Positions 2,795-63,452 of a DNA stretch of 63,452 bases are shown one piece after another. The stretch is taken from the IMG/VR virus record IMGVR_UViG_3300005512_000028, positions 1 to 63,452 of that record; one strand, 5' to 3'. The position numbers were made by a program, and so were the translations under genes. The notes below the pieces were generated by a model, which made no database searches, was not told where the DNA came from, and worked only from the letters and a program-made list of their open reading frames with translations. Numbering within the stretch: position 1 is the stretch's first letter; each line of letters begins with the position of its first letter. Source of the stretch: a virus. Lineage: Duplodnaviria; Caudoviricetes.

Positions 2795-5700
2795 CTATTG
2801 CTTGGATGGGAACTGCTTGCTCATGAAGGTTTCAATGCCAGCGGGCAACGAGCCCGCCTGATAACGCTTGCACGTCCACGCGCTAAAACACTCGGCAAAA
2901 GCCTCTTCTCGGTTTGTCCCGGCGTACTCGGAAACGTGCTTGGACATCTGTCCGAGACCACCTGACCTTGAAACGGCCGATCTCCACTGGGGCGTGTCGG
3001 TAAGGTAATGACCTCCGTGCATATGGGCGTGATGTGCATCTACAGCGTGAGCAAGCTCGTGACGGTATATACCCTGCGTCGACCCGCCTACCACAAACGA
3101 CCCCCCGCCCACATGCACGATATTAGGTCGTCCTGTACCACCAGATCCAATTGTAATGCTATGGTCTAATGGATCATAAAACCCAGCCGCCTTTACATCC
3201 GACCGCGAACGCAATGAGGAGTTCGTCTTTGTTAGCGTAGGCGTGTCTTGGTAATTGATACGAGCTAGCCCCGCGCCGTCGATGCCATCGAATCGGCTCA
3301 CTATGTCTGCATGCTCGTCCGATATGTGATCAAGCTGCCGAGCAACCTCCCGCTCGCGGCTGGCCTTCAATCCAACTTCACTCACACAGTCTGCGCCTGT
3401 GTCGACCTCGTCACCGTACTTGTTGCGGACAGACACATGGCAGCCCTGCTCTTCCTCCAGCCTGTCTCTCGCCTTCTGTGTTTTGGTCTGCTTAGGTGCG
3501 GCTCCTGTGTCTGCGGGGCCGTCCGTCCACGACGACGTCTTCCCGGCATCTGGCTTGTTCGCCGCATCGTCCGTCTTCTTGCCGCCACCGGCTTTCTTCC
3601 CGTGGAACTCTGGATGCTCCTGCTTGCTCTTGTTCAGGGCGTCCGTGGCCCGATTGTACTCCTCGGTCCGCTTGGCCTTCTCCTCGTCGGAGAGTCCCTT
3701 CTGCCTCATCCGTGTGTAGGCGCGCTGCCTGTCCTTATAGAGCTGCTTGACGTCGTCCGGCGCTCCCTCTGGAGGTAGCTGCAGCGCGCGCTGTTCGCCA
3801 CCGCCGCCGCCTCCACCTCCAGCGCCGCCGCTGCTCCAACGGCCGTCCTTGCCTCGCGGCTGATGCGGATTGTAGTTGGCTGTCACGCCCTCGTTCTGAA
3901 CGTCGTCGTCCTTCTGGTCATCGAACGGGGCAAGGAACACCACAACATAGAACGTGGCGAACTCGCCGTCGACGTTTCGCACGAACGTAGTCTGCCATCC
4001 GTCCCAGTGGTCATAGACCTTGACGGACTTCACCCAAGACGCGGGAATCTTTCCCTTATGGTAGAAGGCAGTGCCCTTGCCGTACGCCTTCGTTTCGGGC
4101 CCCGCGTCCGCAAAGAGCGCCTTCCCCTTCGGCACCTGAATCTCGACGATGGCGGGCTCGCCGCCGCGACCTCTCACTACAGAGGTGTCTCTGGCGTACT
4201 GGTCGGCCACGGACTTCTTCGAGCTGACATAGACCTTCCCCTTCTGGCCTCCGTCATACACCTTGGGGTCGTAGTTGCGGAACTTGGCCGGGGTGATCCC
4301 GTGCTTGGCTATGTCATTGGCGCGCTTCTCGGTCGTGCCGTGGAAGAACCGACCGCCTGCAGTCCGCTTACCGTCCTTGCCTCGTGGCTGCTTAGGATTG
4401 TAGTTGGCAACAGCGCCGTCAAAAGGGCGCTCACCTTCGTTCTGGACGCCGTCGCCCTTCGGCTTGTCGTCCTTCGGCTTGTCGTCGTCCGGTCCGTCTC
4501 CACCCTCGTCGTCCTCGTCCGACGCTGTCTCGGCCGCGTACTTCTCGGCCTCCTTGATCACGGCCTCGGCCCGATCGGGCTCCATACCCAAGACGTCGAT
4601 GAAGTACAGGGACGGAGGGTACAACTGGTCAACGCCACCGCCAACGTACTTCGCCATGGCCTCCGTCTGCTTTTGGGCCACGGCTGCCTTTTCCTCGTCG
4701 GTGACGGAGTTGAGATCTGGCCACTCGACGGTGTACTCCTTCGGCTCGGGCAGAGCGCCAACTGCAATCAACCGGTCGACGAGCGGCCTGATCAGCATGG
4801 GCGTCAGGTACTTATTCTGCCGCTTGGCCACCCGCTTGTTCCACGCCCGTGCGTCCTGAGAGGACGCGAGCTGTGCCTGCTCGGACCCAAACAGAATCCT
4901 GAACGGTATGCTCTTGGCGATTGCAATCGCCTTGAGGTGCGTGTCGACATGGGTATTGGGTGCGGATACCTGCGGGGACAGTGGCTTGGCGGTTACGCCC
5001 GTCAGCGCCAAGTACCGCTGCAGGCCGTTCGAGTAGTTGAGGAACTCCTCGCGGAGGGTATCGGCGTCAATCGTCGCCCCCTGGTTGACCAGATCGGGAT
5101 TGACCTCAAACGCCATGCCCGGGAATCCGCCGCGCCAGAACATCTCGCCAGAGCCACTGAGAATCTTGCGGAGATCGTACAGGCGGTTATAGACGTCCTT
5201 CATCCGTGGCGTGCCGTAGACCTCCGACATACCAAGGCCATCGGCAACGTGGATCACCCGTGTCCAGTGCACTCGCCGCGTGGTTTGGGACGCATTGACG
5301 TCGCCGGAAACGGCAGACCCGTCTTGGAATTGGATGTTGTACGAGATGGGTCGTCCGTAGCGGGGGCTGTCCGTGCTGGTCTCTGTACCCGCGACGGTCA
5401 CTACGCTCTCGTCGAAGACGCGCATGAAGATCAGGTCCGCGGTGGCCTTCCCCTCCTTCTCGCCTGTCTTCTGGTTCACTCCATTCGCGGGCTTCGACAA
5501 ATCCTCGCCGTCGTCCAGTCCGAGCAGCAGTACACCAAACCGGCCGATGCCCGAAAGCTCGTCGATGCGATGGAGGTAATACCAGAGATTCTTGGCGTCA
5601 TTGAGATCGCCAAGCGCGTCCTCAAACGCGGTCCTAGATGCGTCCTCCGTCTCAAAGACGATCGGGTCCATCGACCATGACTCTTCGGGCATGCATCCGA

Positions 5701-5968
5701 CCACGCGTTTGGCGATGCCTTCGCGGTCATACATCTCTCTGTAGAGATGCGCCGTGATGTCATCGGGGTAGCCGCACTCCGCATTGAAGTCGCGGTCGGT
5801 GCCATCGAGAAGAGTCCGCAGCAACTCGGACCGTGCCAACGACGCGTTCTGGATCAGCTCGCGGACCTGCGTCATCGCCTTCATCTGGTTGGCCGTGATG
5901 TCGGGGCCCTTCTTGGCCTGCGTGCGTTTCGCACGGACAGTCCGCTTGCCTGTTGATGCCTTAGCCAT
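2795..5968 (-). CDS. Portal protein (DUF1073-like) with two C-terminal tagged cargo domains: Tpt1/KptA-like ART fold and HExxH zincin
   Basis: Follows TerL; portal motifs (YDREGIAKRVV, RVHWTRVIH, IPFRILFG, VEWPDL) in about the first 480 aa, then FFHGTT...VYVS and YRHELAH...SEYAGTNREEAFAE. Confidence 0.9.
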   Translation of the reverse strand: MAKASTGKRTVRAKRTQAKKGPDITANQMKAMTQVRELIQNASLARSELLRTLLDGTDRDFNAECGYPDDITAHLYREMYDREGIAKRVVGCMPEESWSMDPIVFETEDASRTAFEDALGDLNDAKNLWYYLHRIDELSGIGRFGVLLLGLDDGEDLSKPANGVNQKTGEKEGKATADLIFMRVFDESVVTVAGTETSTDSPRYGRPISYNIQFQDGSAVSGDVNASQTTRRVHWTRVIHVADGLGMSEVYGTPRMKDVYNRLYDLRKILSGSGEMFWRGGFPGMAFEVNPDLVNQGATIDADTLREEFLNYSNGLQRYLALTGVTAKPLSPQVSAPNTHVDTHLKAIAIAKSIPFRILFGSEQAQLASSQDARAWNKRVAKRQNKYLTPMLIRPLVDRLIAVGALPEPKEYTVEWPDLNSVTDEEKAAVAQKQTEAMAKYVGGGVDQLYPPSLYFIDVLGMEPDRAEAVIKEAEKYAAETASDEDDEGGDGPDDDKPKDDKPKGDGVQNEGERPFDGAVANYNPKQPRGKDGKRTAGGRFFHGTTEKRANDIAKHGITPAKFRNYDPKVYDGGQKGKVYVSSKKSVADQYARDTSVVRGRGGEPAIVEIQVPKGKALFADAGPETKAYGKGTAFYHKGKIPASWVKSVKVYDHWDGWQTTFVRNVDGEFATFYVVVFLAPFDDQKDDDVQNEGVTANYNPHQPRGKDGRWSSGGAGGGGGGGGEQRALQLPPEGAPDDVKQLYKDRQRAYTRMRQKGLSDEEKAKRTEEYNRATDALNKSKQEHPEFHGKKAGGGKKTDDAANKPDAGKTSSWTDGPADTGAAPKQTKTQKARDRLEEEQGCHVSVRNKYGDEVDTGADCVSEVGLKASREREVARQLDHISDEHADIVSRFDGIDGAGLARINYQDTPTLTKTNSSLRSRSDVKAAGFYDPLDHSITIGSGGTGRPNIVHVGGGSFVVGGSTQGIYRHELAHAVDAHHAHMHGGHYLTDTPQWRSAVSRSGGLGQMSKHVSEYAGTNREEAFAECFSAWTCKRYQAGSLPAGIETFMSKQFPSKQ

Positions 5969-6014
5969 AGGGCTAATCCTTTCGGTCGGGGTCTTTACCC
6001 GGTCGACCCGGCGG

Positions 6015-6368
6015 CTACTTCTGGTTCAGGTACTTCACAATGTCGAATATGGGTGCGTGCTCCACGGACCCCTTGCCCATCGAACGGTCCCGGTCCCACA
6101 GCTTAACGATCTCGTCGTCCGAGTACCCCTTGTCTCGGAGGTACTTGTGATCGCTCTCACTGTAGTTGGGGTGGGCCATGACCTGCTGGGAGGTCTTGCG
6201 CGACGCCCCACCACCACCGCCACCTCCGCCGCCTCCACCGGTCGACGCGAAACGACCGCGCTTGTCACGGGGCTGCTTGGCGCTGAAGTTCATCACCGGC
6301 AACTCGAGCGGTGTCTCGTCAACGGGGACGCCGTCGTCGATCACGTTCACAATCATGCCCGTTTTCAT
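6015..6368 (-). CDS. Small tagged cargo protein (VMN|FSAKQPRDKRGRF, poly-Gly, unknown helical domain)
   Basis: 117 aa, AGGAG RBS; shares its leader with 6390-6887. Confidence 0.8.
   Translation of the reverse strand: MKTGMIVNVIDDGVPVDETPLELPVMNFSAKQPRDKRGRFASTGGGGGGGGGGGASRKTSQQVMAHPNYSESDHKYLRDKGYSDDEIVKLWDRDRSMGKGSVEHAPIFDIVKYLNQK
6202..6320. repeat. About 120-bp near-identical repeat, copy 1 (encodes DETPLELPVMNFSAKQPRDKRGRFASTG-polyG)
   Basis: Matches 6727-6848 with a few synonymous changes and one Gly codon fewer. Confidence 0.9.
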
Positions 6369-6389
6369 CTGTACTCTCCTACACTATCA

Positions 6390-6887
6390 CTAGTCGAATC
6401 GGATACGATCTCGGATGCTGATGACGTGGTCGGTCATGCTGCTCGACTTCAGCGTGGCCGTGCGTCCCTTCTTCGTCCACGTCTTGTTGGGGTGTCCCAT
6501 GTGGAGTGCGCCCGGCGGGGAGGTATCCGCCTTACCCCACTTGGCGCTGATAGCCCTCTCCACGCGTGCCCTCTTGCCACTCACCGCGAAGTGAGCTTCG
6601 CCCATCGCGGCAGAGTACGAGAGCTGGCCGACCTCCAGTTTGTTAGACGCGAGGCCCTTTCGCAAAGTAGATGCGTCGTTGAGGGGCGTCCGCTTGCTCT
6701 CCGCGTCGGCAGAGCCCGCTGCGGATGACGCCCCACCGCCGCCGCCTCCACCTCCGCCGCCTCCACCGGTCGACGCGAAGCGACCGCGCTTGTCACGGGG
6801 CTGCTTGGCACTGAAGTTCATCACCGGCAACTCGAGCGGCGTCTCGTCGCTGGGCCGCGTGTCTGCGTTGACCAGAAACCCATGCAT
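6390..6887 (-). CDS. Small tagged cargo protein (same leader, different C-terminal domain)
   Basis: 165 aa, starts immediately after the TerL stop. Confidence 0.8.
   Translation of the reverse strand: MHGFLVNADTRPSDETPLELPVMNFSAKQPRDKRGRFASTGGGGGGGGGGGGASSAAGSADAESKRTPLNDASTLRKGLASNKLEVGQLSYSAAMGEAHFAVSGKRARVERAISAKWGKADTSPPGALHMGHPNKTWTKKGRTATLKSSSMTDHVISIRDRIRFD
6727..6848. repeat. About 120-bp repeat, copy 2
   Basis: Matches 6202-6320. Confidence 0.9.
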
Positions 6888-6888
6888 G

Positions 6889-8352
6889 TCATCGTCCTTT
6901 CGTTACCGCCAACCCACCTACCCGTATGTTCGGCTTAGTCAGCAGCGCAAACGCGCCACTGGACGCATCCACTTGGTCTTTATACGTCGAGTGAGGGAAG
7001 TACTGCAACTCCGATATATAGTCATTATTCCACGGACCCTCGAGCAAGGCGACGTTGCCGCTGTTGACCTGCACTGCATACGGGTCGGCCCGGAGGACCT
7101 TGTTGCCAACGGGCCTGTCGATGCGAACACGAAAGCCACGCAGATTCTTCGCGGTGTTCTCGGCGCTCTCCTTACCACCAGAGCCCGGCTCCTGCTCGAC
7201 GCCAATGATCACATCGATACCATCGGACTTGGCCGTGTCGAGGATAATGATCTCGCGCTGGCTCGCGTCCCACTGGCCTCTCCGTACGTCACTGACCACG
7301 ATTCGGCCGCTCTTCTCGAGGTCCAATCGAGCGCCCACCGTGTACGCCCCTCCGTCCGCAGTGCCCGCCTTGTCCCAGTAGCGGACCGAGCGGACGATCT
7401 TCGTAACAGTAGGCACCGTGCGTACGAGGGCCACCTTGAACATCCCGCCGCCGAGGGGCACGGGCGATTGGAGGAACTGGCCTGCGTATCCGTACTCGCC
7501 CATCCGCGCTCGCATGGCCTCGAGCATCTGCTTTGGCAGGCGTACGGGGTCCATCAAGCCGTCGGTGTACTTCCGATAGAGGCGTCGTGGACGGACGCGG
7601 CTGCGGTCGGCGCGGTCGACCTCGGCGGGCAAGCAAATGTGACGGACGCTGGCTTTGCCCTCCTTGGCCATCCGTAGCATCACGCCGGAAGGGTCCTCTT
7701 GGTGCAGTCGCTGCATGATCAGAATCGTCTGGGCCACGACCTTGTCGACCTTTCGCGTTGGGAGCGTCTCCGCGAGCCAGCGATTCGCCGCCTTCATCTC
7801 GGCCTCGCTAACGGCCTGGTTGGGGTCGAGCGGGTCGTCGACGATAATGAAGTGGCCGTGCATGCCTGTCACGCTACCGCCGGTCGACACGGCCACGCGC
7901 GATCCTCCTCGCGTGTTGGCGAAGTAGCCCTTCGTGTTCTGGTCGTCGCGGAGGCCTACGTCACCGAAGAGGCGTCGGTACTTATCGCTCTGGATGATGT
8001 CGCGGCACTTTCGGGAGAGGTCCATCGCAAGCGGATAGGCGTACGATCCGCAGATGCTCCTGCACGTGGCCATTCGCGTCCACGTCCACGCGGGGAACAT
8101 CACCGAGCAGACCGTGCTCTTGGTCGTGCCGGGACTGATGTTGATGACGAGTTCGTACGGAGACGGCAGGCCTGCAAACACGCGCTCGGCGGTAGCCTGT
8201 AGCTCGTCGCAGAGGACACGGATGTGCCAGTTCCAGACGGGGGTTTCGGGGATCACCGTGTCCCAAAACCGCTGGACGAACTCATAGAACGAGTCGCGGC
8301 AGATCGACGCCTCGAGCTGGTCCCTGCTCACCGTGGCCCGCTTAGCCCTCAT
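6889..8352 (-). CDS. terL: Terminase large subunit
   Basis: Walker A-like ISPGTTKST, Walker B IIVDD, MQRLH, nuclease YWDKAG and KDQVDA. Confidence 0.95.
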   Translation of the reverse strand: MRAKRATVSRDQLEASICRDSFYEFVQRFWDTVIPETPVWNWHIRVLCDELQATAERVFAGLPSPYELVINISPGTTKSTVCSVMFPAWTWTRMATCRSICGSYAYPLAMDLSRKCRDIIQSDKYRRLFGDVGLRDDQNTKGYFANTRGGSRVAVSTGGSVTGMHGHFIIVDDPLDPNQAVSEAEMKAANRWLAETLPTRKVDKVVAQTILIMQRLHQEDPSGVMLRMAKEGKASVRHICLPAEVDRADRSRVRPRRLYRKYTDGLMDPVRLPKQMLEAMRARMGEYGYAGQFLQSPVPLGGGMFKVALVRTVPTVTKIVRSVRYWDKAGTADGGAYTVGARLDLEKSGRIVVSDVRRGQWDASQREIIILDTAKSDGIDVIIGVEQEPGSGGKESAENTAKNLRGFRVRIDRPVGNKVLRADPYAVQVNSGNVALLEGPWNNDYISELQYFPHSTYKDQVDASSGAFALLTKPNIRVGGLAVTKGR

Positions 8353-14261: not shown

Positions 14262-15137
14262 ATGACGAAGCAGACAAGCAAATTACAGGGCATCCAAGAA
14301 CGGGCCATGCTCGTCAAGTTCACCGTGTCCCGATGGGACGGGCGTAAGCGGGACGACCGCGTCACGCAGGACGTCAGCACGACCAACCACGCTGAGAACG
14401 ACGCCGGCGCGTGGTGGACACATCTCATCAGCCGCAAGGCGCTCGCGCCTACCCGTAACGCCGAGGTCCGGGGACGCATCATCCACAACAAGCAAACGCT
14501 GCCGTGGAACGACGTCGGCTACAGAATTCTGCCGGCCGCGAACTTCCTCGAGTACACCAAACGGATGCGAAAGGCACAGCGCGACTTCGACGATGCAGTC
14601 CGTACGCTCATCGACGAGTACCCGTCGCTGCTTGCCTCCGCGAAGGACCGCCTTGGTGAACTCTTCTATGCCGAGTGGTACCCGGAGCCGCACGAGCTCG
14701 CTCCTCGCTTCGCATGGGGCATCGATATCATGCCCCTTCCGACAGGGGGCGACTTCCGAGTCGACCTCGGCAGCACACAGACGACTGCCATTCAGCAGCA
14801 CATCGACCGCCACGTCACAAACAAATTGGCGTCCGCTACCCACGACCTGTGGCAGCGCCTCTACGACGCGGTGAACAAGCTGGCCGACAGGCTGTCGGAT
14901 ACGGACCGAGTCATCAGGGCGTCCCTCCTGACCAACCTTCAGGAGCTATGCGAACTCCTGCCGCGTCTGAACATCACGCAGAACGCCAAGCTCACCGCGA
15001 TGAGCACCAAGATCGCCAAGAAGGTAAAGGCGTCCGACCTCGACCACATCCGAAACGACGACACGGCACGGGCGTCGGCAGCCAAGGCAACGAAGGTCAT
15101 CCTCGACCAAATGGCGGGGTACATGGGAGACTCCTAA
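14262..15137 (+). CDS. DUF3150-like helical protein
   Basis: AAGGAG RBS; TLPW...GYRILP, YP motif; lies between the AAA and VWA genes. Confidence 0.65.
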   Translation: MTKQTSKLQGIQERAMLVKFTVSRWDGRKRDDRVTQDVSTTNHAENDAGAWWTHLISRKALAPTRNAEVRGRIIHNKQTLPWNDVGYRILPAANFLEYTKRMRKAQRDFDDAVRTLIDEYPSLLASAKDRLGELFYAEWYPEPHELAPRFAWGIDIMPLPTGGDFRVDLGSTQTTAIQQHIDRHVTNKLASATHDLWQRLYDAVNKLADRLSDTDRVIRASLLTNLQELCELLPRLNITQNAKLTAMSTKIAKKVKASDLDHIRNDDTARASAAKATKVILDQMAGYMGDS

Positions 15138-16315
15138 TGACCACAGCAGAACGTATCGTGCGTGCGCGTACCGTACTGGTCATCGACCAACCCTTCTTCG
15201 GGACGCTGGTAACGCGCCTGCCTATGGAACGCAACACCCACATTCAAACGATGGAGACGGACGGCACTCGTATCGCATACAACCCCGCGTTCGTGGCGTC
15301 GCTAACGGACGACGAACTGGTAGGCGTCATTGCCCACGAGGTAATGCACATCGCGGCGGGCCATCCGTGGCGGCGGGAAGAGCGCGAAGCGCGTCGTTGG
15401 AATACGGCGTGCGACCTCGCTATCAACCCGCTGCTTACGGACTGTGGCATGCGACTGCCCGCCGGCGCACTCGAAGACGCCGCGTGCCGGAATATGGATG
15501 CGGAGGCCATCTACCGCCGTCTGCCTCCATCGCCCGCCAACCGCGACAAATACGCCCACGGCGCGGAAAAGGCCGGATGTGGCCCACAGAGCCGCAGCGC
15601 TACGAGAAATGGCGAACAGGGCCAACGTCGTGCGGACCCGGGCGGATGTGGGGCCGTCCGCGACGCCCCGTCCAACGACCGGGTACGCGACCAGCACGAG
15701 GCGGAATGGAGGGTCGCCGTGTCGCAGGCGGCGAAGGCCGCGTCGAAGCACGGACGCCTTCCCGGGTCCCTCGCCCGCCTCGTGAAGTCCATCGTCAACC
15801 CGGCGATGCCATGGCGGGTAATGCTGCGTGACTTCGTCGTGCGTGCAGCAGCCAACGACTACAACTGGAACAGGCCGAACAGAAAGTACGTCGGCGCTGG
15901 CATCGTAATGCCATCGATGATATCCGACAGGCTGCCGGACATTGTAGTGGCCGTCGACACCTCGGGTAGCATTACGCAAAGCATCACAGACCGCTTCGCC
16001 GCCGAGATATCGGCCATCCTGATGGCGTATGATACGACCATCCATGTCGTCTATGCAGACGCGGCCGTGACAGACACCGAAACGTGGACTCGCGAGGGGC
16101 TGCCACTGCGACTCAACCCCAAGGGAGGCGGCGGCACGGACTTCAGGCCGGTGTTCGAGTGGGTCGAAAAGCGGGGGCTAACACCCGCCTGCCTTGTCTA
16201 CCTCACGGACATGCGAGGCAGATGGCCCGAGGCCGAGCCTCCGTATCCTGTCCTATGGGCCGCAACGACCGCAGACGTCACCCCGCCGTTCGGCATCACG
16301 GCCAGCATGGCGTGA
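15137..16315 (+). CDS. DUF2201-type metallopeptidase plus VWA domain protein
   Basis: PFFG, TDG, HEVMH, WNTACDLAIN, VAVDTSGS, GGGGTDFRPVF, YLTD. Confidence 0.9.
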   Translation: MTTAERIVRARTVLVIDQPFFGTLVTRLPMERNTHIQTMETDGTRIAYNPAFVASLTDDELVGVIAHEVMHIAAGHPWRREEREARRWNTACDLAINPLLTDCGMRLPAGALEDAACRNMDAEAIYRRLPPSPANRDKYAHGAEKAGCGPQSRSATRNGEQGQRRADPGGCGAVRDAPSNDRVRDQHEAEWRVAVSQAAKAASKHGRLPGSLARLVKSIVNPAMPWRVMLRDFVVRAAANDYNWNRPNRKYVGAGIVMPSMISDRLPDIVVAVDTSGSITQSITDRFAAEISAILMAYDTTIHVVYADAAVTDTETWTREGLPLRLNPKGGGGTDFRPVFEWVEKRGLTPACLVYLTDMRGRWPEAEPPYPVLWAATTADVTPPFGITASMA

Positions 16316-35757: not shown

Positions 35758-36083
35758 GGGCCTGAATTGGTATCGACCAGATGCAGAAGCTGACGCTACG
35801 TGTCGAGGTCGCCGGTAGGCCTCGCTAAACAACCGGCGCGGCACTTAACTGCCACCCCGATGAAGATGGCGGCTTAGCCGCCCGTCCTACACAACGACGC
35901 CGATGATTGTGTAGGGCGCACGGTATCGGCTACCTTCGGAGCGGTGCAAGGCAACCGCTGCCCTGGTGGATTCGGTGTGGACGCCCCCGCAGCACGGATA
36001 CTCGTCGGCCGGAAACGACGGGACGCACGTGAGGCCGAATGCCAAAGCATCATGGGACCCGGGTTCGATTCCCGGCAGGTCCA
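35758..36083 (+). ncRNA. ssrA: tmRNA; tag (A)ATPMKMAA at 35851-35877
   Basis: Acceptor GGGCCTG/CAGGTCC+A with G3-U, TGGTATCGAC, PK1 CGAGG/CCTCG plus GCCGGT/ACCGGC, TAACT-GCC resume context, GGAC-CCGGGTTCGATTCCCGG T arm. Confidence 0.92.
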
Positions 36084-36095
36084 GTAGAAAGGAAG

Positions 36096-41500: not shown

Positions 41501-42397
41501 TCATAGCACCATCTTGCGATTCACTGCATTACGCATCAGCGCCATCACCCTATCAGGTACTTGCTCTGCCGTGTACTGATGCGACAATACATGTCTTAGC
41601 ACGGCCGTCTGCGCATCTATGATCTGATCACAACAACGGGCGTCCAGCTGCTTTGTGCGGTCGCGAGTCAACGACGGGTCCGCCGTCATACACCACACAG
41701 CCCCCTCTCGTCTGTACACCGCGTCCCCGTAGCACAGCACCGGGAGATGGATATCCAGCGCCTCCAGTCCGCACGTGGAGTTCACGCACGCCAAAGCACA
41801 CGCGCTCTCCATGGCCTCGTCCAGACTGGCCGACCGATCCCACGTCATCTTGTCGCTGCCATCGACGGTCTGCACTACATCCTTCGAGGCCACGGCACGC
41901 GGGTGCCGTCGCACGCGCATCTGACATAAACTATGGTCGGCCAAGTGGCGAATAAACGCGGCCATGTTTTTGAAGTACGGAGACAGGCATCGTATCTGCG
42001 TGTCCCCGTCGCTCTGTAGTATCACAAGCAGATCGCCGCTGGGTACGTCAACGCAACCACCCGATCTCCAAGTCACGGGGTCGTGCATCCAGCTGGCCTT
42101 GGCGTTGATGCCCTCCGGGTCTAACTGGATAGCCCCGTCCTGAGGCATCCATCCTAACTCCGCGAAAGCCATCGACACGCCAGATCGTTTGCATAGAGGC
42201 GATATCTCATCGTACAGCGGATGGATACCATTCCATAGCACGACGAGATCGCATGAGGTTAGGATTGCCGGGACCGGGCGCTTATTGCGCCACCGCCGTA
42301 CTATGTAACCAGCACGACGAAGTGCAGAGGCAACCAAATCCATCCACGGCGCGCTTCGTTCGTCGGCCCTTCGTTCTACGAGAACCATGCGTCTCAT
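41501..42397 (-). CDS. KpsS/KpsC-like capsule-synthesis glycosyltransferase
   Basis: LWNG, AELGW, LDPEGINA, LQSDGDTQI, RRHP, VNSTCGLEAL, GDAVY. Confidence 0.8.
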   Translation of the reverse strand: MRRMVLVERRADERSAPWMDLVASALRRAGYIVRRWRNKRPVPAILTSCDLVVLWNGIHPLYDEISPLCKRSGVSMAFAELGWMPQDGAIQLDPEGINAKASWMHDPVTWRSGGCVDVPSGDLLVILQSDGDTQIRCLSPYFKNMAAFIRHLADHSLCQMRVRRHPRAVASKDVVQTVDGSDKMTWDRSASLDEAMESACALACVNSTCGLEALDIHLPVLCYGDAVYRREGAVWCMTADPSLTRDRTKQLDARCCDQIIDAQTAVLRHVLSHQYTAEQVPDRVMALMRNAVNRKMVL

Positions 42398-44946
42398 ATC
42401 GCTCGCTCCTTCCGACGGCGATGGGACTGGAGTGCACGGCGAAACGTATCCTTCTGTAGCTGCGTCGCGCGCTTGGTCATCTGCTTCGGGTGCATGCGGT
42501 AGTAATACAAGGGCCGCTTCAGCGTACCCCAGACAGCCCCCGCCCGAATAGACCGTATGTTCCAGTCTGCATCTGCTGCCCACTCCATATCCGGGTCAAA
42601 GCCACCCACCTTGTCATACCACTGACGCGAGGCCACAATGGACGCGCCAACAGGGCCATGCCGGAAGTCGCCCTTCATATACTTGGCCGCGTCCACGGCG
42701 GGGACTGCGTGATCCTTTATGTACTTCCCATCCATGGCATAGATACCCATACCAGTCGTGGAGATGTCCATGTCCGGGAAACTGAGTAGGTGGGCTACCT
42801 GCCACGACAGCCGTTCGGGTGCGTGCATGTCATCGCTGTCCAGTCGCGCCACGATCTCACCAGTGCTGTGGGCCAATGCAAAGTTCGTCGCCTTCGCGTA
42901 CCCCCCGTGCGGCGTGACGTGCATCTTAATACGAGCGTCCGTGCCCTTGGCTCGTGCAATAGCAGCCTCCAGCGCGTCATCGGGGCCATCCACTACAATC
43001 ACCAGCTCCCATTGGCGGTACGTTTGCTTCTGCATAGACGCGATGGCATCCTCAATGTAATCGGCGGATTGGAAGGCGGGCATCAGCACGGATACAAGCG
43101 GCGGGTTCAGCAGCCTCTGATAGAGCGAGCCGATGCGAGCCATGGTCTTGCGGTTGGACAGCTGCGATACCATCCGCTTGCTTAGACGATGACGCGGTGC
43201 GCTTGGCATGGCATCCGCCGTCTTGCAGATGTGCGATACGAACTCGTCGTCCGTTTCGCAAATGGTGATTGGGTACCCCTGCTCGGCAAGCGAATGTACA
43301 TTACCGACGGGACGGGATGCCACAGGCACTCCGCATACCAGCGCCTCTGCTAGTGCGGTAGGCCCTCCCTCTATGTCACTGGTGATGAGCATCATATCCA
43401 TCCCGGCCAACCAGCATTCGGGACGGTTTGTTATACCAGTGACGGTGATGTGGCCTTCGTTCTGCCGCATCAGGTCATTGTAGCGTTTCTGCTCGCTGTC
43501 CAGCCCGCATCCACCCACCCACACGAACTGTACTGTAGGATGCGTTTCGTGTACCTTGTGTGCAATGTAGATGAAACGGTCGATGCGCTTCTCAGAAGCA
43601 CACCGGCACAGCAGGCCCACCGTCATACGAGGTCCATTCATCGGGGCGAACTGATCCACATCCGCCATCATGCCCGGAAGGAGCATCGGCACGGACACGT
43701 CTACGCCCCTCCGCTGTGTGATCACCGAATCTGTGAGCACCGCGTCCATCCGCTCTCCGTCCCAATCGCCCGCATCGTCTAAATTGGCCGTGTTGAACAC
43801 GCTGTCAATCACAGGCAGCGGCGTCGCCGCCTTCAGTGCTCGCCGCGTGTCTCGGTCTAAGACAGTACAGTGAATGAGATCGGCGTCTATCGATTTGGCG
43901 TAGTCAGCCACGGCTTCTGCATACCGCTTCTTCCTTAGCACACTCGTGCATATGTACTGATCGGTCATTGACGTGCCCGCTTTGTTGGGCTCGGATGCAC
44001 ATGCAGCAAAGTCGTACTTGTCGCCAAGCGCACGCACTGTAGATTGGAAGATACGCTCTGCCCCACCACACTGGAATCGCTTATACATATGCAGTATCAG
44101 CGGCTTCTTGGGCCCGCAACGGCGGTGTGGTTTATGCACGCGCCTGCGCACTGGCTCTGGCTCTGGCTCTGGCGCGTTATGCGCGCCGACCTCCTTCTTG
44201 TGTTCACGGGAGGCCTGAAAGTGCTCTATGACTGGCGTGGCGTCGGGGAACTGCTCTCTGTGCAGATCGAAGATGAAGCAGTACTCGGCAGGCAGGCGGC
44301 GGACACGGAACGATGTGTCTCTCTGCAGAAGCAGACGGAGGTTGTCTTGGTCGGTCCTACGAGGGAAGCGCCCGTTGCGGGCCACCCACGCATCCATCAG
44401 CCGCTCTCTGCCTACGTTGCATCCCGGGAAGAACTGTGTACCGCCGCACACCCGATTGCGCCTGAAGTAGTGTACAGCGATATCGCACACGGGCAGCGAG
44501 TCTAAGTAAGGCCACGGGTCAGAGTGTATCTTCGCGTCGGCGTCTACCAACAGCAGATCGGTATCCGGCATCTCCCTCATCAGCCGCAGCATCATAACCT
44601 GCCGCTCAAAGAGGTTGGCTGTCCAGTCTCCGTGGTTGGGCAGCTCTTCTACATAATGAGGGAGGCCCAGGCGCTCCACGGACGGGAGGAAGAACCGCCG
44701 TATCACATCGTGGTATGGCCCCTCCGTGTAGCAGCTAACAATCAGCTTGCGTGCTACCGGTACACGCACAGGCGCGCTCTCGTCAGGCTCATCGGATACC
44801 AGTTCAAACCGGTCGGGGAAGAGAGCACTGCAGTCGACCCCTGATTCGAATATGTAGCCTTTGGAGAGTACCTCACCGTTGTGCTTCACCTTATCCTGCG
44901 TGACACGAATTTTCACCGTTGCGTCCTTCCCTTTATACTGCACCAC
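42394..44946 (-). CDS. Three-domain glycosyltransferase (GT-A, GT4-like GT-B, GT2)
   Basis: VDADA...TDQ; GGAER...EKR...EGGPTALAEA; VSVLMPA...LDSDD...D. Confidence 0.9.
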   Translation of the reverse strand: MVQYKGKDATVKIRVTQDKVKHNGEVLSKGYIFESGVDCSALFPDRFELVSDEPDESAPVRVPVARKLIVSCYTEGPYHDVIRRFFLPSVERLGLPHYVEELPNHGDWTANLFERQVMMLRLMREMPDTDLLLVDADAKIHSDPWPYLDSLPVCDIAVHYFRRNRVCGGTQFFPGCNVGRERLMDAWVARNGRFPRRTDQDNLRLLLQRDTSFRVRRLPAEYCFIFDLHREQFPDATPVIEHFQASREHKKEVGAHNAPEPEPEPVRRRVHKPHRRCGPKKPLILHMYKRFQCGGAERIFQSTVRALGDKYDFAACASEPNKAGTSMTDQYICTSVLRKKRYAEAVADYAKSIDADLIHCTVLDRDTRRALKAATPLPVIDSVFNTANLDDAGDWDGERMDAVLTDSVITQRRGVDVSVPMLLPGMMADVDQFAPMNGPRMTVGLLCRCASEKRIDRFIYIAHKVHETHPTVQFVWVGGCGLDSEQKRYNDLMRQNEGHITVTGITNRPECWLAGMDMMLITSDIEGGPTALAEALVCGVPVASRPVGNVHSLAEQGYPITICETDDEFVSHICKTADAMPSAPRHRLSKRMVSQLSNRKTMARIGSLYQRLLNPPLVSVLMPAFQSADYIEDAIASMQKQTYRQWELVIVVDGPDDALEAAIARAKGTDARIKMHVTPHGGYAKATNFALAHSTGEIVARLDSDDMHAPERLSWQVAHLLSFPDMDISTTGMGIYAMDGKYIKDHAVPAVDAAKYMKGDFRHGPVGASIVASRQWYDKVGGFDPDMEWAADADWNIRSIRAGAVWGTLKRPLYYYRMHPKQMTKRATQLQKDTFRRALQSHRRRKERAI

Positions 44947-58088: not shown

Positions 58089-59144
58089 CTACGCCGCAGC
58101 GCCGTGCACCAGACCGCTGTTGCTGTTCTGGTCCAGCCGAATCTGCGGGACGAGAATGCACATGACCTTGAAGTTCAGCTGGAGGCCGCCCTTGCTCTCC
58201 CACTGAACCGTTGTGATCTCCATGCCGACGACGACACGGACGACGTCGCTGGTCATCTGCACCAGCAGCAGCGTGTAGCCCGTGAGGTAGTCGAGCGTGT
58301 CGACGCCCTCGATGCCGTTGATCTTGGCCAGCCGCTCGCGGAGGGTGTTGTCGCCCTTGCTCGTCGAGTAGTCGGCGTCCATGTACGTGTCCCAGCTCGG
58401 GGAGCAGTACAGTTTCCACGGGCCGTAGTGATACGCGTCCTGCGACTGCTTCCGCATGGCGAGTACCTCTTCAACCGTCTGGGCACCAGTCCACCCGCTG
58501 GAGGTCGGGTTGGTGAGCACCTTGGTCAGACGACCGGTCCGGTTGGTGTAACCGTAGATCGTGCCGCCGCCGTAGGTGTACGAGGACGCCGTGCCAAGCG
58601 TGAGCTGCTCGGCCATCTCCGCGACCCGGCGACCCGCCAACTCCGCGGTCGTGGTGTCGAGCGGGCTGCCGCCGTTGCGGCTCGCCATGATCTGGCGGGC
58701 GCTGAACCCGAAGTCCTTGTGGATGATCGGGAGGGGCAGGTTGGTCAGCTCGAACTCGGGCCGATCCGCATTGCTCTCGCGGAGGCCGTCCATGCTGATG
58801 GAGGCCTCGGTGATGTCGCTCATGGTCTCCGTCTCGAGCACCGTCTTGCCCATGCCGTTGGGGATGACGTACTCGAGGCCCCGACCACGCAGGTCGGCAA
58901 CGGCACGGAGGCGCGGCTTGGCTGCCTTCACGACAGCCTCGTCCAGCGTCTTCCAGTCGTCCTTCCGCAGCGTCGCCGTCGCATTGTGAATCGGCACTGC
59001 CTTGATGGTGCCGCCCTCGTTGACGGTGATGTAGCTCCTGCCGTCCTTGCCCTGCCAAGGACGCAACGCGTTGACGTTGCCATGCACCTGCATGATGCGG
59101 CTCGCAACGTCACCGTGCGCCTGGCCATTCAAAACGTAGTCCAT
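58089..59144 (-). CDS. Major capsid protein (HK97 fold, encapsulin/linocin-like)
   Basis: TLRKDDWKTLDEAV, PLPIIHKDF, TIYGYTN; follows protease and decoration genes. Confidence 0.9.
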   Translation of the reverse strand: MDYVLNGQAHGDVASRIMQVHGNVNALRPWQGKDGRSYITVNEGGTIKAVPIHNATATLRKDDWKTLDEAVVKAAKPRLRAVADLRGRGLEYVIPNGMGKTVLETETMSDITEASISMDGLRESNADRPEFELTNLPLPIIHKDFGFSARQIMASRNGGSPLDTTTAELAGRRVAEMAEQLTLGTASSYTYGGGTIYGYTNRTGRLTKVLTNPTSSGWTGAQTVEEVLAMRKQSQDAYHYGPWKLYCSPSWDTYMDADYSTSKGDNTLRERLAKINGIEGVDTLDYLTGYTLLLVQMTSDVVRVVVGMEITTVQWESKGGLQLNFKVMCILVPQIRLDQNSNSGLVHGAAA

Positions 59145-59748: not shown

Positions 59749-61248
59749 CTAGTCGAACGTCATCGCCGGAGGCGTCAGAGGCTCCTCCTCCTCGTTGCCC
59801 GTGATGTCGGCGGGCTCGGCCATGCCGTCGTAGACGGCGGGCTTGGCCCCGGCCGTGGCCAGCGCCGCGATCTTCTCGAGCTCTCCGATGCTCTTGGTCG
59901 CGAGCTGCTCCTTCGTGAACGTGTTGGCCTTGTTCGCGGTGATGACGGTCACGATCCTCTGGCGCTGCGCCTTGTGGGCACGAACGCCTGCCTCGAGCAT
60001 GTCCCGCATGCCCTCGGGAGCGTTGGCGATGAACTCCTCGACCGTCTGCGGCGGCTCTTCGTTGCCGTCCTCGTTCTCCACGGGCTCGTCCTTGTCCTCG
60101 GACTCGTCCTTGTCCTCGGGCTCGTCCTTGTCCTCGGACTTCTCCGCGTTCTGGACGCCCGCTGCGATCTTCGTCAGATGCGCCTCGTCGAACGCGAGCA
60201 GCGCGTCCCTGTCATCCTCATCCCAGTCCGTGTTGGCGTTGCTGATGAGGTCCTCGACGACCTGTTCCTTGTCCATCGCTTGCTCCTTGTTATGTGTTAC
60301 CCGTTTACCGTCTGTGCCTGTATAGCTCACGACGCGCCTCACTTCCTTCCGCCCCGCAAGGTCAACGGAGGCCGTCTTGGTCTTCTTGTCGAACGTGTAC
60401 GACGCGCTGTACATCTTGCCGTCGTCCTCATAGATGAAGTGCTTGTCGAACACCTCCACTACATACACGGCCGCGGCTGGCATACCCACCGGGTTCGTGG
60501 CGGTGTCTGAGAGTTCGGTGCGGATGGCGGCTTCGATGTCCTGATGGGACGACGCGTTGTCGATTCGCCGCATGGCCAGTACCATGGCGATCTCCGCGTC
60601 ACTCATCGCCGGGTCCAACGCGGCGTTCTGCAGTAGGCCCGCCCCGTCCATGACGCTGCACGCCCCCTTCTTGTCGGGCAGCAGCGCCAGGTGATCCGGC
60701 CGGAAGTTACTGACGGTGCCCGTGTAATCCTCGTTGTTCCACGTGCCCGCCACGCCATCGATGTCGGTGAACAGGCCAGTGGAGACCTCCATGACCTTGC
60801 CTTCCTCCAGCGCGGCGAGCACCCGCTCGTCGACGGCACGGAGGCGATCCGGCTCCAGCCACGCGTCTGCCTTGAGCTTGCCGCCCTCGACGCGCGTGTT
60901 GAGGATGACGCCCACCTTGCGACTGGTAAGGACGTCGGGGTCGCATGCGGACACGGGCCTGCCGTTCATCGTCGGATGGTAGACTACGATGGGCTTGTGA
61001 TTCCAAACGCCCGCGCTCTTCTCCAGCTCGTCCGGCGAGTAATACAGCGGGCCGTTGGTGCCGTTGTGGACGCCCTCAGTGATCATGACCATGGGAGCGA
61101 CGAGCCAGTCGCGTCCCTCCATCTGGTCGTGGCGTACGGAGGGCTTGACGTTGGCGGTGACGGATTGGAGTGCGTTGAACACGGTGACGCGTTCTGCGAC
61201 CGCTGATTCGTTCGCCACCATTCGCGTCCGCTTCGATTTGCGAGGCAT
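59749..61248 (-). CDS. DUF2213-like prohead protease plus scaffold
   Basis: EGVHNG, WNHKPIVVYHP, EVSTG, PDHLALLP..GACS..DGAG; acidic scaffold C-half. Confidence 0.88.
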   Translation of the reverse strand: MPRKSKRTRMVANESAVAERVTVFNALQSVTANVKPSVRHDQMEGRDWLVAPMVMITEGVHNGTNGPLYYSPDELEKSAGVWNHKPIVVYHPTMNGRPVSACDPDVLTSRKVGVILNTRVEGGKLKADAWLEPDRLRAVDERVLAALEEGKVMEVSTGLFTDIDGVAGTWNNEDYTGTVSNFRPDHLALLPDKKGACSVMDGAGLLQNAALDPAMSDAEIAMVLAMRRIDNASSHQDIEAAIRTELSDTATNPVGMPAAAVYVVEVFDKHFIYEDDGKMYSASYTFDKKTKTASVDLAGRKEVRRVVSYTGTDGKRVTHNKEQAMDKEQVVEDLISNANTDWDEDDRDALLAFDEAHLTKIAAGVQNAEKSEDKDEPEDKDESEDKDEPVENEDGNEEPPQTVEEFIANAPEGMRDMLEAGVRAHKAQRQRIVTVITANKANTFTKEQLATKSIGELEKIAALATAGAKPAVYDGMAEPADITGNEEEEPLTPPAMTFD

Positions 61249-61385
61249 ACATAACTCCCAATAAGATAAGGGGCCCGTTTCTGTAACAGGCCCCTTGCTG
61301 GGTATCTGCACGCGATCTTCGATTGTGCATATGCTATACGATGGCAACCTACAGCGATGTGCATCCCCAGTCGAGCAAGAATCTC

Positions 61386-61585: not shown

Positions 61586-62464
61586 TCAGTCCGCCTGCAG
61601 GTCCGTGTCCACTATCGTCAACGACCCGATCCGCCGCACTCCTCGTACCTTCAGAGAGGAGCCCCGCGGCAGCAGCATCTCTCCCTCGTCACCGAGCCCG
61701 CCAGAAACCCACCGCGATGTATTCAGCGCGTGCGTTCCCTTCGGGGCGTCAATCGTCATCACCACCGCGTGCTTCTGGCCACCCCCACGGGAGAAGTCAA
61801 TCGCGGCCGACGGCTTCGCGGTCGTCGACATGAATGCCTTGTCCTGAATGACGCCGCCGACCTTATACGAGGGCGGCGTGTCCATGCCTATGCCCCTGTA
61901 CAACGTGGTGTCCTTCCCAAGAGGCGTCGACTTGGAGATGGCAGAGTCTATGTCGGCGGCGTCCTTGTGATCCTTCCCCTTGCGGAGGCGTGTGTTTATG
62001 GAATCCCACTTCGCCTCGGAGACATAGCCGCGCACGGCGGTGTGTTCCTCTGCCGTGAACGAGACGCCCTTCGCTGTATCCACGGCCTTCTGCTGTCCCG
62101 CGTCCCCTTCCAACTTGCGCTTGGCCACGAGGTTGCTCATCGAGTCGACCACCCGTGCCTCTTGCTCCGGCGTTGTGGCTCTCTTGAGCTTGGTCTCATA
62201 GAACCCGCGCTCCATCGGGTCGAGTTGCCCTGCTAGCTCCTGCGGCGTGTCGCTACCCCCACCGCCACCGCCGCCTCCTCCGCCCGACGTCCACTGCCCG
62301 TCCTTGTCACGCGGTTGATGCGGACTGTAGTTGGACACTATCTCATCGTCATCGGGGTCGGCGGGGTCGAATCCAAGCTCGCGCACCACGTCCGGCGGCG
62401 TCTGGTTCATCTCGACGTCGTCGGGGTCGTAGTCCAGACCCATCTCTTTTGGCACCCTGCTCAT
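61586..62464 (-). CDS. Tagged ADP-ribosyltransferase (R-S-E, VIP2/Alt-like)
   Basis: Acidic leader, VSN|YSPHQPRDKDGQW plus poly-Gly, INTRLR, LYRG, FMSTT, DEGEMLLPRG. Confidence 0.9.
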   Translation of the reverse strand: MSRVPKEMGLDYDPDDVEMNQTPPDVVRELGFDPADPDDDEIVSNYSPHQPRDKDGQWTSGGGGGGGGGGSDTPQELAGQLDPMERGFYETKLKRATTPEQEARVVDSMSNLVAKRKLEGDAGQQKAVDTAKGVSFTAEEHTAVRGYVSEAKWDSINTRLRKGKDHKDAADIDSAISKSTPLGKDTTLYRGIGMDTPPSYKVGGVIQDKAFMSTTAKPSAAIDFSRGGGQKHAVVMTIDAPKGTHALNTSRWVSGGLGDEGEMLLPRGSSLKVRGVRRIGSLTIVDTDLQAD

Positions 62465-62471
62465 TGATACC

Positions 62472-63452
62472 TCATGGCTTAATTGGCGTGAAGACACGCG
62501 GGTTGATATAGCTCTGAAGCGCGACGACGGGTGTGTTTCCTAACTGCGTGGAAACGCGTCCCGCTACGTCCATGACGGATGCCTTGTACTCCTTCATATT
62601 CTTGGCCTTGGGCATGTCAGCTACCATCGCGCGTGCGGATGTCGTTCCCTTCAGCGTGCGGTAGTCCTTGGGCTTGTACTTACCACCGGACACCGCCTTA
62701 CTATACCCTCGCATCTTACCATCCGTGGTATCGAACAATCTACCACGGGGGCCCGCCTTTTTCGCCCGTGCTAGGACGTCTGCACGGACAGCCTTGTCTT
62801 CTACAGGTATAGAAAGGCTGACCCCCTTCTTGCCTACGAAGTCCAGTCTGACGTCAGAGCCGTTTTGAACGACGTGCCTCCCCTGCAGCGTCGTGGCACC
62901 GTACGCCTGCTTAGCCGCCTTCGTATCGCGCGTGCTACCGGGGCGGATGCCTGTTACCTGAACCAGTCGTAGTGCAGACGCCGCCTCTGCCGTGTCGTGG
63001 TCTTTGCTGACGGCGTCCTTCGCTGTCTTTGCGAACAGCGACTTCTGGTCGCGCTCGAGTGCGGTCACACGTTTGAACTTAGCCTCGCCCTGCTCCTTCG
63101 AAAACTTCTCCGAGTATATACGCACGGTGCGCCCCTTGGCGTCTTGGCCGACCGCCTGTACCTTCGTCGCGGGGTTATCGCTGACGTAGGCGTCCGTCCA
63201 ACCAGGGGGAATCGGCCTGCCGTCTAGGGTGTGACTGCCTTCGCCCTTCCGTACCATAACGGGGTCGCCGTGCTTGTTGACTCTGGGTTTGCCATCCTTG
63301 TCCAGAGCAGGCGTGGCCTCCGCGGCGGGCTTGAGTCCGTACTTGGCGGCGACTGCACCAGAGCCTGTCCATCTGCCGTTCTTGTCACGGGGCTGGTGCG
63401 GACTGTAGTTGAGAACAGCGTACGCAGCCTCGGCCGAGTCCATCGCCTTGGC
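62472..63452 (-). CDS. Topoisomerase IB domain; 3' part of the MuF polyprotein starting at 2058
   Basis: IPPGW, GIRPG, FVGKKG, KDYRT, LGNT, SYINP; in frame with 1-2058 through the terminal overlap. Confidence 0.9.
   Translation of the reverse strand, partial: AKAMDSAEAAYAVLNYSPHQPRDKNGRWTGSGAVAAKYGLKPAAEATPALDKDGKPRVNKHGDPVMVRKGEGSHTLDGRPIPPGWTDAYVSDNPATKVQAVGQDAKGRTVRIYSEKFSKEQGEAKFKRVTALERDQKSLFAKTAKDAVSKDHDTAEAASALRLVQVTGIRPGSTRDTKAAKQAYGATTLQGRHVVQNGSDVRLDFVGKKGVSLSIPVEDKAVRADVLARAKKAGPRGRLFDTTDGKMRGYSKAVSGGKYKPKDYRTLKGTTSARAMVADMPKAKNMKEYKASVMDVAGRVSTQLGNTPVVALQSYINPRVFTPIKP
63330..63452. repeat. Terminal direct repeat (same as 1-123)
   Basis: Exact match. Confidence 0.95.

Follow-up and report, generated by a model that had tools for sequence, protein, structure and literature searches.

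A type IB topoisomerase module at the C-terminus of a MuF-type head protein in an uncultured tailed phage, a candidate virion cargo

Type IB topoisomerases (TopIBs) require neither ATP nor Mg2+ and relax supercoils of both signs. The topoisomerases known from tailed phages are replication enzymes, such as the type II topoisomerase of T4-type phages and the topoisomerase I of jumbo phages; the torsional problems of DNA delivery and packaging are still debated, and to our knowledge no enzymatic swivel is known at either step. Proteins of the MuF/gp7 type are head components located at the portal, and the cargo proteins of T4 carry a short targeting leader that is removed by the head protease. 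The described systems closest to the locus reported here are the MuF polyvalent proteins and polymorphic toxins (SPP1 gp7 family), in which a MuF domain encoded in the head gene cluster has effector domains attached; in Iyer 2017 and Jamet 2017, MuF- or portal-fused enzymes and polyvalent effectors are held to be packaged and injected. In this study, the Caudoviricetes record IMGVR_UViG_3300005512_000028 was analysed over its full length of 63,452 nucleotides (the window). A 971-amino-acid (aa) protein encoded across the two ends of the record is, by its domain content, a polyvalent MuF-type head protein ending in a TopIB, and this TopIB is probably packed into the virus particle.

The locus shares with the MuF polyvalent systems the MuF domain within a head cluster and the attached effector domains, together with ADP-ribosyltransferase (ART) partner modules and a metallopeptidase-like HExxH region nearby. 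It departs from them in that TopIB is not named in the main texts of Iyer 2017 and Jamet 2017 (as distinct from their supplements), and no published description of a head-fused TopIB was found in the papers searched. Unlike in the MuF polymorphic toxins of Jamet 2017, no immunity gene follows the TopIB, the next gene encoding an ART effector; these toxins come mainly from temperate phages, whereas no integrase was found among the 45 open reading frames (ORFs) of the window scanned with Pfam, smaller ORFs lying outside the scan. T4 Alt, as described in Iyer 2017, provides a second parallel, being an enzyme taken up into the head and delivered along with the DNA. A third had been invoked in the initial annotation of this DNA, namely that vaccinia virus packages its TopIB to support early transcription. 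This precedent holds according to PMC12188299, in which the type I enzyme is stated to function mainly in early transcription and Da Fonseca & Moss 2003 and Shaffer & Traktman 1987 are cited on its encapsidation.

Bases 1-123 of the 63,452-bp record are identical to bases 63330-63452, as in a complete phage record, and this 123-bp terminal repeat lies inside the ORF under study; the record therefore reads as a circle or a permuted genome. The minus-strand frame at 62472-63452 (326 aa; stop codon TGA at 62472-62474) is open up to the window end. Because of the repeat, it continues into the minus-strand ORF at 1-2058, which runs off the opposite end of the record, encodes the MuF domain and has 41 residues in common with the 326-aa piece. 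With one copy of the repeat removed, a single 971-aa ORF starting at ATG 2056-2058 was obtained, with no stop at the junction. It encodes, in order, a leader of ~55 aa, a short motif (tag 1, see below) with a poly-Gly run, a weak ART-like domain, MuF, a second copy of the motif (tag 2) and the TopIB. The leader, tag 1, the ART-like domain and MuF are in the N-terminal piece (124-2058, minus strand), and tag 2 and the whole TopIB module are in the C-terminal piece (aa 646-971; 62472-63452, minus strand). The fusion to MuF, which the initial annotation had attributed to 62472-63416, is not visible within that interval and was seen only via ORF 1-2058 across the repeat. The same junction is spanned by P0097, a 391-aa protein from a separately assembled Joint Genome Institute (JGI) contig, which matches the MuF piece over its last 106 residues with 100% identity and the TopIB with 99%, and the join is thus not an artefact of this record. 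The MuF (Phage_Mu_F) head-morphogenesis domain (aa 455-562; 373-696, minus strand) matched PF04233 with an E-value of 1.2e-17 (65.1 bits against a cut-off of 29.6) and PHROGs families of head morphogenesis or minor head proteins at 1e-31 to 1e-26. The ART-like region (aa 109-265; 1264-1734, minus strand) matched PF03496 below the cut-off (E 0.0044, 16.8 bits against 23.4). The 971-aa protein holds two putative effector domains, the TopIB and this weakly supported ART-like region.

The catalytic domain of the TopIB (62475-63110, minus strand) was delimited by PF01028, by alignment with 2f4q and by an AlphaFold2 (AF2) model, and the N-terminal beta-sheet domain (~aa 44-113 of the 326-aa piece; 63114-63323, minus strand) by PF21338, the AF2 strands and 1vcc. 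PF01028 (Topoisom_I) matched aa 115-310 at E 4.4e-16 (59.4 bits against a cut-off of 23.7), and PF21338, the bacterial TopIB N-domain, matched aa 81-104 at E 1.1e-4 with a score (22.2 bits) under its cut-off of 27. The closest solved relative by sequence was the TopIB of Deinococcus radiodurans (2f4q, E 1.2e-21). The five catalytic residues that had been read from the sequence in the initial annotation are all present: those in GIRPG, GKKG (first K), KDYRT, LGNT and SYINP align with R, K, R, N and Y of 2f4q, an assignment that rests on this alignment and on the human numbering in PMC4824112 (R488/K532/R590/H632/Y723). Their codons on the minus strand are at 62943-62945, 62829-62831, 62658-62660, 62535-62537 and 62508-62510, corresponding to R815, K853, R910, N951 and Y960 of the full-length protein. 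2f4q likewise has Asn at the fourth site, which is therefore usual for enzymes of the bacterial type. Across the query and 32 aligned homologs the five residues did not vary, and R-K-R-N-Y was kept in 389 of 389 aligned homologous TopIB domains, nine further matches that covered the tag region alone being left out of this count.

The AF2 model of the TopIB module, built on 33 sequences, had a mean pLDDT of 87.8 and a pTM of 0.80. The 21 best fold matches in the PDB were all TopIBs, from Deinococcus, variola virus, human, Leishmania and others (E 1.9e-14 to 1.1e-8), with Foldseek giving 1.9e-14 for 2f4q, 4.6e-14 for 2h7f (TM 0.64) and a probability of 0.98 for the N-domain structure 1vcc. Tyrosine recombinases and protelomerases ranked far behind the TopIBs in this search. 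A telomere resolvase was considered and rejected, as the pentad is conserved and protelomerases matched at E 0.2-0.4 only. On sequence and predicted fold, the last ~300 residues appear to form a complete, catalytically competent type IB topoisomerase, for which "relaxase", as used in the initial annotation, is the wrong term.

A survey of MuF-TopIB fusions, suggested together with the initial annotation, found the module fused to or beside portal or MuF proteins in many uncultured phages, and showed that the predicted TopIB module recurs at the C-terminus of portal, MuF and scaffold/protease proteins or as a small neighbouring gene. An exhaustive HMMER search of cluster representatives with the TopIB part as the query gave 4504 matches at E<=1e-3, 2501 at E<=1e-10 and 1043 at E<=1e-30. 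Among the best 150 of the 4504, the TopIB lay within 15 residues of the C-terminus in 132, the length exceeded 570 aa in 86, and identity was 43-56%, P0097 excepted. A word-indexed search limited to proteins of 572-2000 aa yielded 96 long homologs, whose precomputed Pfam domains included a portal family in 41, MuF in 10, DUF2213 in two and Mu protease I in one. PF21338 was recorded in 68 of the 96, the TopIB was C-terminal (<=15 aa from the end) in 82, and NUDIX (7), ART families (8), 2H phosphoesterase (4) and InPase (3) occurred as co-modules.

In IMG/VR, an independent collection that was scanned by alignment (a single-protein pattern scan matched none), 214 stretches encode a TopIB relative; the following figures refer to the best 80 loci of these stretches. 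The ORF was intact at its 5' end in 74 of the 80 loci (294-1826 aa), and 72 of the 80 ORFs ended within 13 residues past the TopIB match. Pfam matches in the 56 carriers with an N-terminal part of at least 150 aa were Phage_portal_3 (20), MuF (9), Portal_Mu (3), Phage_portal_2 (3) and Phage_portal (2). Stand-alone TopIB genes accounted for 20 of the 74 ORFs with an intact 5' end, and their 37 nearest upstream same-strand ORFs included matches to portal (8 and 4), MuF (4), InPase (4) and terminase (1 to 2). A one-peptide-pattern scan of genome contigs gave seven loci, all of them in metagenome bins, and says little on prophages; the gene order in the bin loci was terminase, portal, an intein-bearing protein of ~600 aa, leader-tag-TopIB and a NUDIX protein. 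The intein-splicing match of the ~600-aa protein between portal and stand-alone TopIB was below the Pfam cut-off. Such proteins were seen at 5908-7713 in locus L008 and 5705-7459 in locus L010, and also in L069 and L072.

Tag 2 (NYSPHQPRDKNGRW; 63369-63410, minus strand) is the boundary element directly before the TopIB, and tag 1 (NYNPHQPRDKDGRW; 1852-1893, minus strand) has a poly-Gly run after it. With the six-frame protein pattern N[YF].[PA].QPR[DG]K.G[RKQ]., seven copies of this 14-residue motif were found, mostly followed by poly-Gly, at 1852-1893, 3836-3877, 4364-4405, 6249-6290, 6777-6818, 62291-62332 and 63369-63410, all on the minus strand. All seven lie between the terminase and the protease/scaffold gene, and each stands ahead of a putative effector module. 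A strict form of the tag ([QH]PR, a few residues, then G[RKQE][FWY]), sought within the 130 residues upstream of the TopIB core, was present in 78 of 235 homologs at a median distance of 34.5 residues and in 0 of 235 shuffled controls. A looser form, E..HPR.....G.F, appeared in the majority consensus just before the TopIB in the 56 IMG/VR carriers. Looser versions were seen ahead of modules in unrelated phages as well. Judged by its placement, the tag is a module-boundary element; its use as a site of cleavage, by the head protease or by the HExxH module, or as a docking peptide is a guess. Such cleavage has been proposed for polyvalent proteins generally (Iyer et al. 2017). T4 Alt and the T4 internal proteins differ from the present case in being other enzymes on other carriers, and cleavage at the tag is hypothetical here.

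On the minus strand the genes run in the order terminase, two small tag proteins, portal, MuF-TopIB ORF, ART gene, protease/scaffold, decoration and capsid, and the replication genes occupy ~14-34 kb of the plus strand, apart from the head module. This gene order bears out the earlier placement of the TopIB in the head module behind MuF and the tag, not in the replication module. Given that the TopIB is part of a recurrent head-protein architecture, its delivery by the virion is well supported by architecture. In the reading we favour, MuF would carry the protein into the procapsid at the portal, as for SPP1 gp7, and the tag would be the point where the TopIB is freed or kept on a flexible tether. 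The TopIB would then exit with the DNA and act as a swivel on the entering genome, relaxing supercoils of both signs while the distal DNA is still in the capsid and before phage gene expression. It could work at this early stage because neither ATP nor Mg2+ is needed, and the role of the encapsidated vaccinia enzyme in early transcription would be its parallel. For action of the TopIB on the entering genome, with the core cargo claim included, we estimate a probability of roughly 55%.

Several observations weigh against this reading. The presence of the TopIB in the virion is a prediction; a portal-fused TopIB must be cut off to leave the capsid, for which cleavage at the tag is a guess, and a late product would also exist unpackaged in the cytoplasm at late times, where it might act. 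Among the 96 long homologs, 42 had no recognised head domain (portal, MuF, DUF2213 or Mu protease I), the portal and MuF matches across the 56 IMG/VR carriers sum to at most 37 member-hits, and the strict tag was absent upstream of the module in all but the 78 tagged members of the 235 homologs. In P0097 the called start is an internal Met (aa 581 of the MuF piece), and by this gene call the TopIB may be expressed separately in some strains. The protein stops 11 residues past the Tyr, and cellular enzymes extend ~30-45 residues more, the Deinococcus TopIB reaching residue 346, 51 residues beyond the alignment end; a short end after the Tyr is the rule within the phage TopIB clade, and this segment was not taken as family-defining. 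Finally, no close relative was found in cultured phages: 10 of 50,697 records matched, at 23-29% identity, and in none of the three matching phage records inspected was the TopIB among head genes, its neighbours there being hypothetical or nucleotide-metabolism genes. The ten matches came from Rhizobium and Pseudomonas jumbo phages, an uncultured 485-kb phage and a Bacteroides phage.

Among the alternatives, the one that survives best, although we consider it improbable, is that the TopIB stays in the capsid, anchored through MuF or the portal at the channel's inner opening, and serves as an energy-free swivel on passing DNA, relieving twist as the DNA spools in during packaging or unspools during ejection. 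This would suit the portal being the commonest carrier (41 of the 96 long homologs; 28 member-hits in the 56 IMG/VR carriers), the TopIB being nearly always the last domain and at the C-terminus, which faces the capsid interior in known portals, and the enzyme being cofactor-free in a compartment without ATP. It is harder to reconcile with the small separate proteins (20 of the 74 IMG/VR ORFs), and with the scaffold/protease carriers, which normally leave or are degraded. The TopIB moreover travels with effectors that are sensible only inside the host (ART, NUDIX and 2H phosphoesterase), and most tailed phages do not need such an enzyme for packaging.

A somewhat more doubtful possibility is that the TopIB is an injected effector directed against the host or its defences and has no part in handling phage DNA; it could relax the chromosome and so shut off transcription, erase supercoils sensed by SMC-family defences, or bypass gyrase-poisoning toxins. 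The other modules of polyvalent proteins are host-takeover or anti-defence enzymes within the framework of Iyer 2017, and overexpressed vaccinia TopIB is reported in PMC11379904 to lower Smc5/6 binding to extrachromosomal DNA in human cells. We know of no bacterial case, however, and the copies in one virion, a dozen at most, would be few for a target as large as the chromosome. An immunity gene is lacking next to the TopIB, the gene that begins 8 bases beyond its stop codon encoding another effector, and no computed result indicates a host target.

We regard it as unlikely that translation from the ATG at 63443 yields a separate TopIB, or that the enzyme stays out of the virion for another reason, and that it acts late in the cytoplasm in replication, transcription or concatemer handling, the fusion being a matter of gene packing. 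This ATG is in frame, being an internal Met of the 971-aa ORF, and P0097 was called from such a Met; the jumbo-phage TopIB, too, is placed with replication and topology functions in the comparative study PMC7824862. However, no stop codon interrupts the 971 aa, the bases ahead of ATG 63443 offer only a weak Shine-Dalgarno-like AAGG, two bases away, and no minus-strand promoter-like site was seen between MuF and the TopIB; the only such sites are at 2251-2224, before the start of the ORF, and at 1434-1406. Association with head genes, by fusion or as neighbours, also recurs across a clade of 39-56% identity with repeated swaps of carrier, a pattern that gene packing alone would not maintain. 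A dead topoisomerase kept as a DNA-binding clamp, to which the short C-terminal tail past the Tyr might point, was rejected as very improbable on the conservation of the five catalytic residues in 389 of 389 relatives and the high-confidence fold model.

Among characterized TopIBs, the Deinococcus enzyme (2f4q / 3m4a) is the best match by both sequence and fold and shares the two-domain layout and all of Arg-Lys-Arg-Asn-Tyr (in eukaryotic enzymes His takes the place of the Asn), but its identity to the phage module is 28%. Cellular TopIBs are free-standing and continue for ~30-45 residues past the Tyr motif, whereas the phage TopIB is a C-terminal module with 11 residues past the Tyr. The vaccinia and variola enzymes share the fold (2h7f, TM 0.64) and are likewise viral gene products that travel in the particle and act as infection begins; they differ in having 18% identity and in being free proteins in the transcribing core of a eukaryotic virus. 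Their printed alignment reaches only the second Arg, and their fourth site is presumably His, not Asn. CCCTT, one form of the (C/T)CCTT cleavage site of poxvirus-type enzymes, occurs 103 times against 80.5 +/- 8.5 expected; this mild excess was not taken as a sign of such target sites, since it appears to follow coding-strand bias. It is nearly always on the non-coding strand of the local genes, probably as an effect of codon usage. The jumbo-phage enzymes (Pseudomonas phages Lu11 and PaBG, Achromobacter phage Motura and Rhizobium phage RHph_N46) are phage-encoded and have the TopIB fold, but they are 560-606 aa long, 23-29% identical and not among head genes; the jumbo-phage survey in PMC7824862 lists a free "phage-specific topoisomerase I" for Lu11, PaBG, Motura, phiRSL1 and NCTB. 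In BFVD, 12 viral structures matched at E<=1e-3, from jumbo phages, giant viruses and poxviruses, at up to 23% identity, and in PHROGs the TopIB matched an unannotated family alone (1.6e-7).

For comparison with cellular genes, genomes were sampled from the class to which one gammaproteobacterial bin belongs, and 9 of the 201 contained PF01028; this count includes the bin's own phage-type copy and an unpublished genome, G044, which was not used further. Seven cellular-type genes were used, each a free-standing frame with a length of 350-411 aa, and they scored 47-92 bits with the query, compared with 135-330 bits for members of the phage clade. IQ-TREE was used to build a quick maximum-likelihood tree from 54 domains; it contains no eukaryotic or poxvirus outgroup and gives no direction of descent. 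Its rows comprised 16 of the 41 portal-fused, 10 of 10 MuF-fused and three scaffold/protease-fused modules, 14 of 20 short homologs, seven cellular and three cultured-phage domains, the portal-fused and short rows being drawn at random and L019, from an unpublished genome, left out. The head-associated modules formed one clade (44 rows, SH-aLRT 95) and the cellular gammaproteobacterial TopIBs a separate one (7 rows, SH-aLRT 98), and the cultured-phage TopIBs fell outside the head-associated clade on long branches. Carriers were interleaved within the head-associated clade, with 10 changes of the portal label and 7 of the MuF label, indicating that the TopIB module moved between carriers many times.

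The presence of a TopIB within head proteins suggests a role at DNA delivery or packaging. It extends the known range of polyvalent-protein modules by an enzyme of DNA topology and is relevant to the origin of bacterial TopIB, which is still debated. The clade is large, conserved in sequence and compact (~250 residues, ending just past the Tyr), and its members should be easily expressed and assayed. If the favoured reading of action on the entering genome is true, the parallel with the poxvirus TopIB, which acts in the first minutes of infection, would be a convergent use of this cofactor-free topoisomerase type. Forterre and Gadelle (2009) proposed a "not yet discovered" viral group as the source of the patchily distributed bacterial TopIB. 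As a speculation that we hold with little confidence, the head-borne TopIBs might represent a very large undescribed viral lineage, possibly that group, and act as a delivery swivel or a "topological stealth" factor. In that case the head-borne TopIB would be the energy-free swivel of the DNA-delivery machine, or would remove supercoils read by SMC-type defences, and would not be a replication enzyme.

The neighbouring genes were assigned as follows. The candidate terminase large subunit (6889-8352, minus strand) matched PF17289 just below the cut-off (E 1.3e-4, 22.5 bits against 22.6). Between it and the portal are two small paralogous tag proteins (6390-6887 and 6015-6368, minus strand), which have an identical leader and tag (PLELPVMNFSAKQPRDKRGRF, then poly-Gly) and diverge afterwards; neither has a family match except for a weak unannotated PHROG for the second. 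The portal (2795-5968, minus strand; 1057 aa) matched PF06381 (6.5e-31) and the portal family phrog_146 (2e-65). It has an extension of ~550 residues composed of two tag-delimited modules, with tags at 4364-4405 and 3836-3877; the last module contains a HELAH zinc-peptidase-like motif (3047-3061), and Pfam names only the portal domain. The gene next to the TopIB (61586-62464, minus strand; 292 aa) encodes a leader, a tag, poly-Gly and an ART (PF03496, 6.2e-15; Alt-like ART in PHROGs, 1e-7). Its ATG (62464) is 8 bases beyond the TopIB stop codon (62472-62474), which lies within GAGG. It is followed by a DUF2213 protein with an acidic repeat tail (59749-61347, minus strand; PF09979, 3.9e-7), a candidate head maturation protease or scaffold with a weak PHROGs link to head maturation protease (1.5e-6), and by the candidate major capsid protein (58089-59144, minus strand; PF19774, 1.9e-26; PF04454, 8.9e-11; phrog_771, 6.5e-30). 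The replication block on the plus strand encodes an SNF2 helicase, a DnaB-like helicase, a clamp, a uracil-DNA glycosylase (UDG)-exonuclease, a family A polymerase, a RecA-like protein and a flap nuclease, and no second topoisomerase was found among the 45 scanned ORFs.

Other features of the window were noted in passing. The gene at 14675-16315 (plus strand), which adjoins the SNF2 helicase gene and heads the plus-strand early or replication block, encodes a DUF2201 metallopeptidase and VWA-like protein (9.8e-60 and 1.2e-31). Among the unannotated minus-strand ORFs upstream of the head genes, that at 42394-44946 encodes an 850-aa protein with GT1- and GT2-type glycosyltransferase domains. A full-length transfer-messenger RNA (tmRNA) gene is located at 35758-36086 on the plus strand (RF00023, 76.2 bits against a gathering score of 47, E 8e-28), and its tag peptide was predicted by ARAGORN to be ATPMKMAA.

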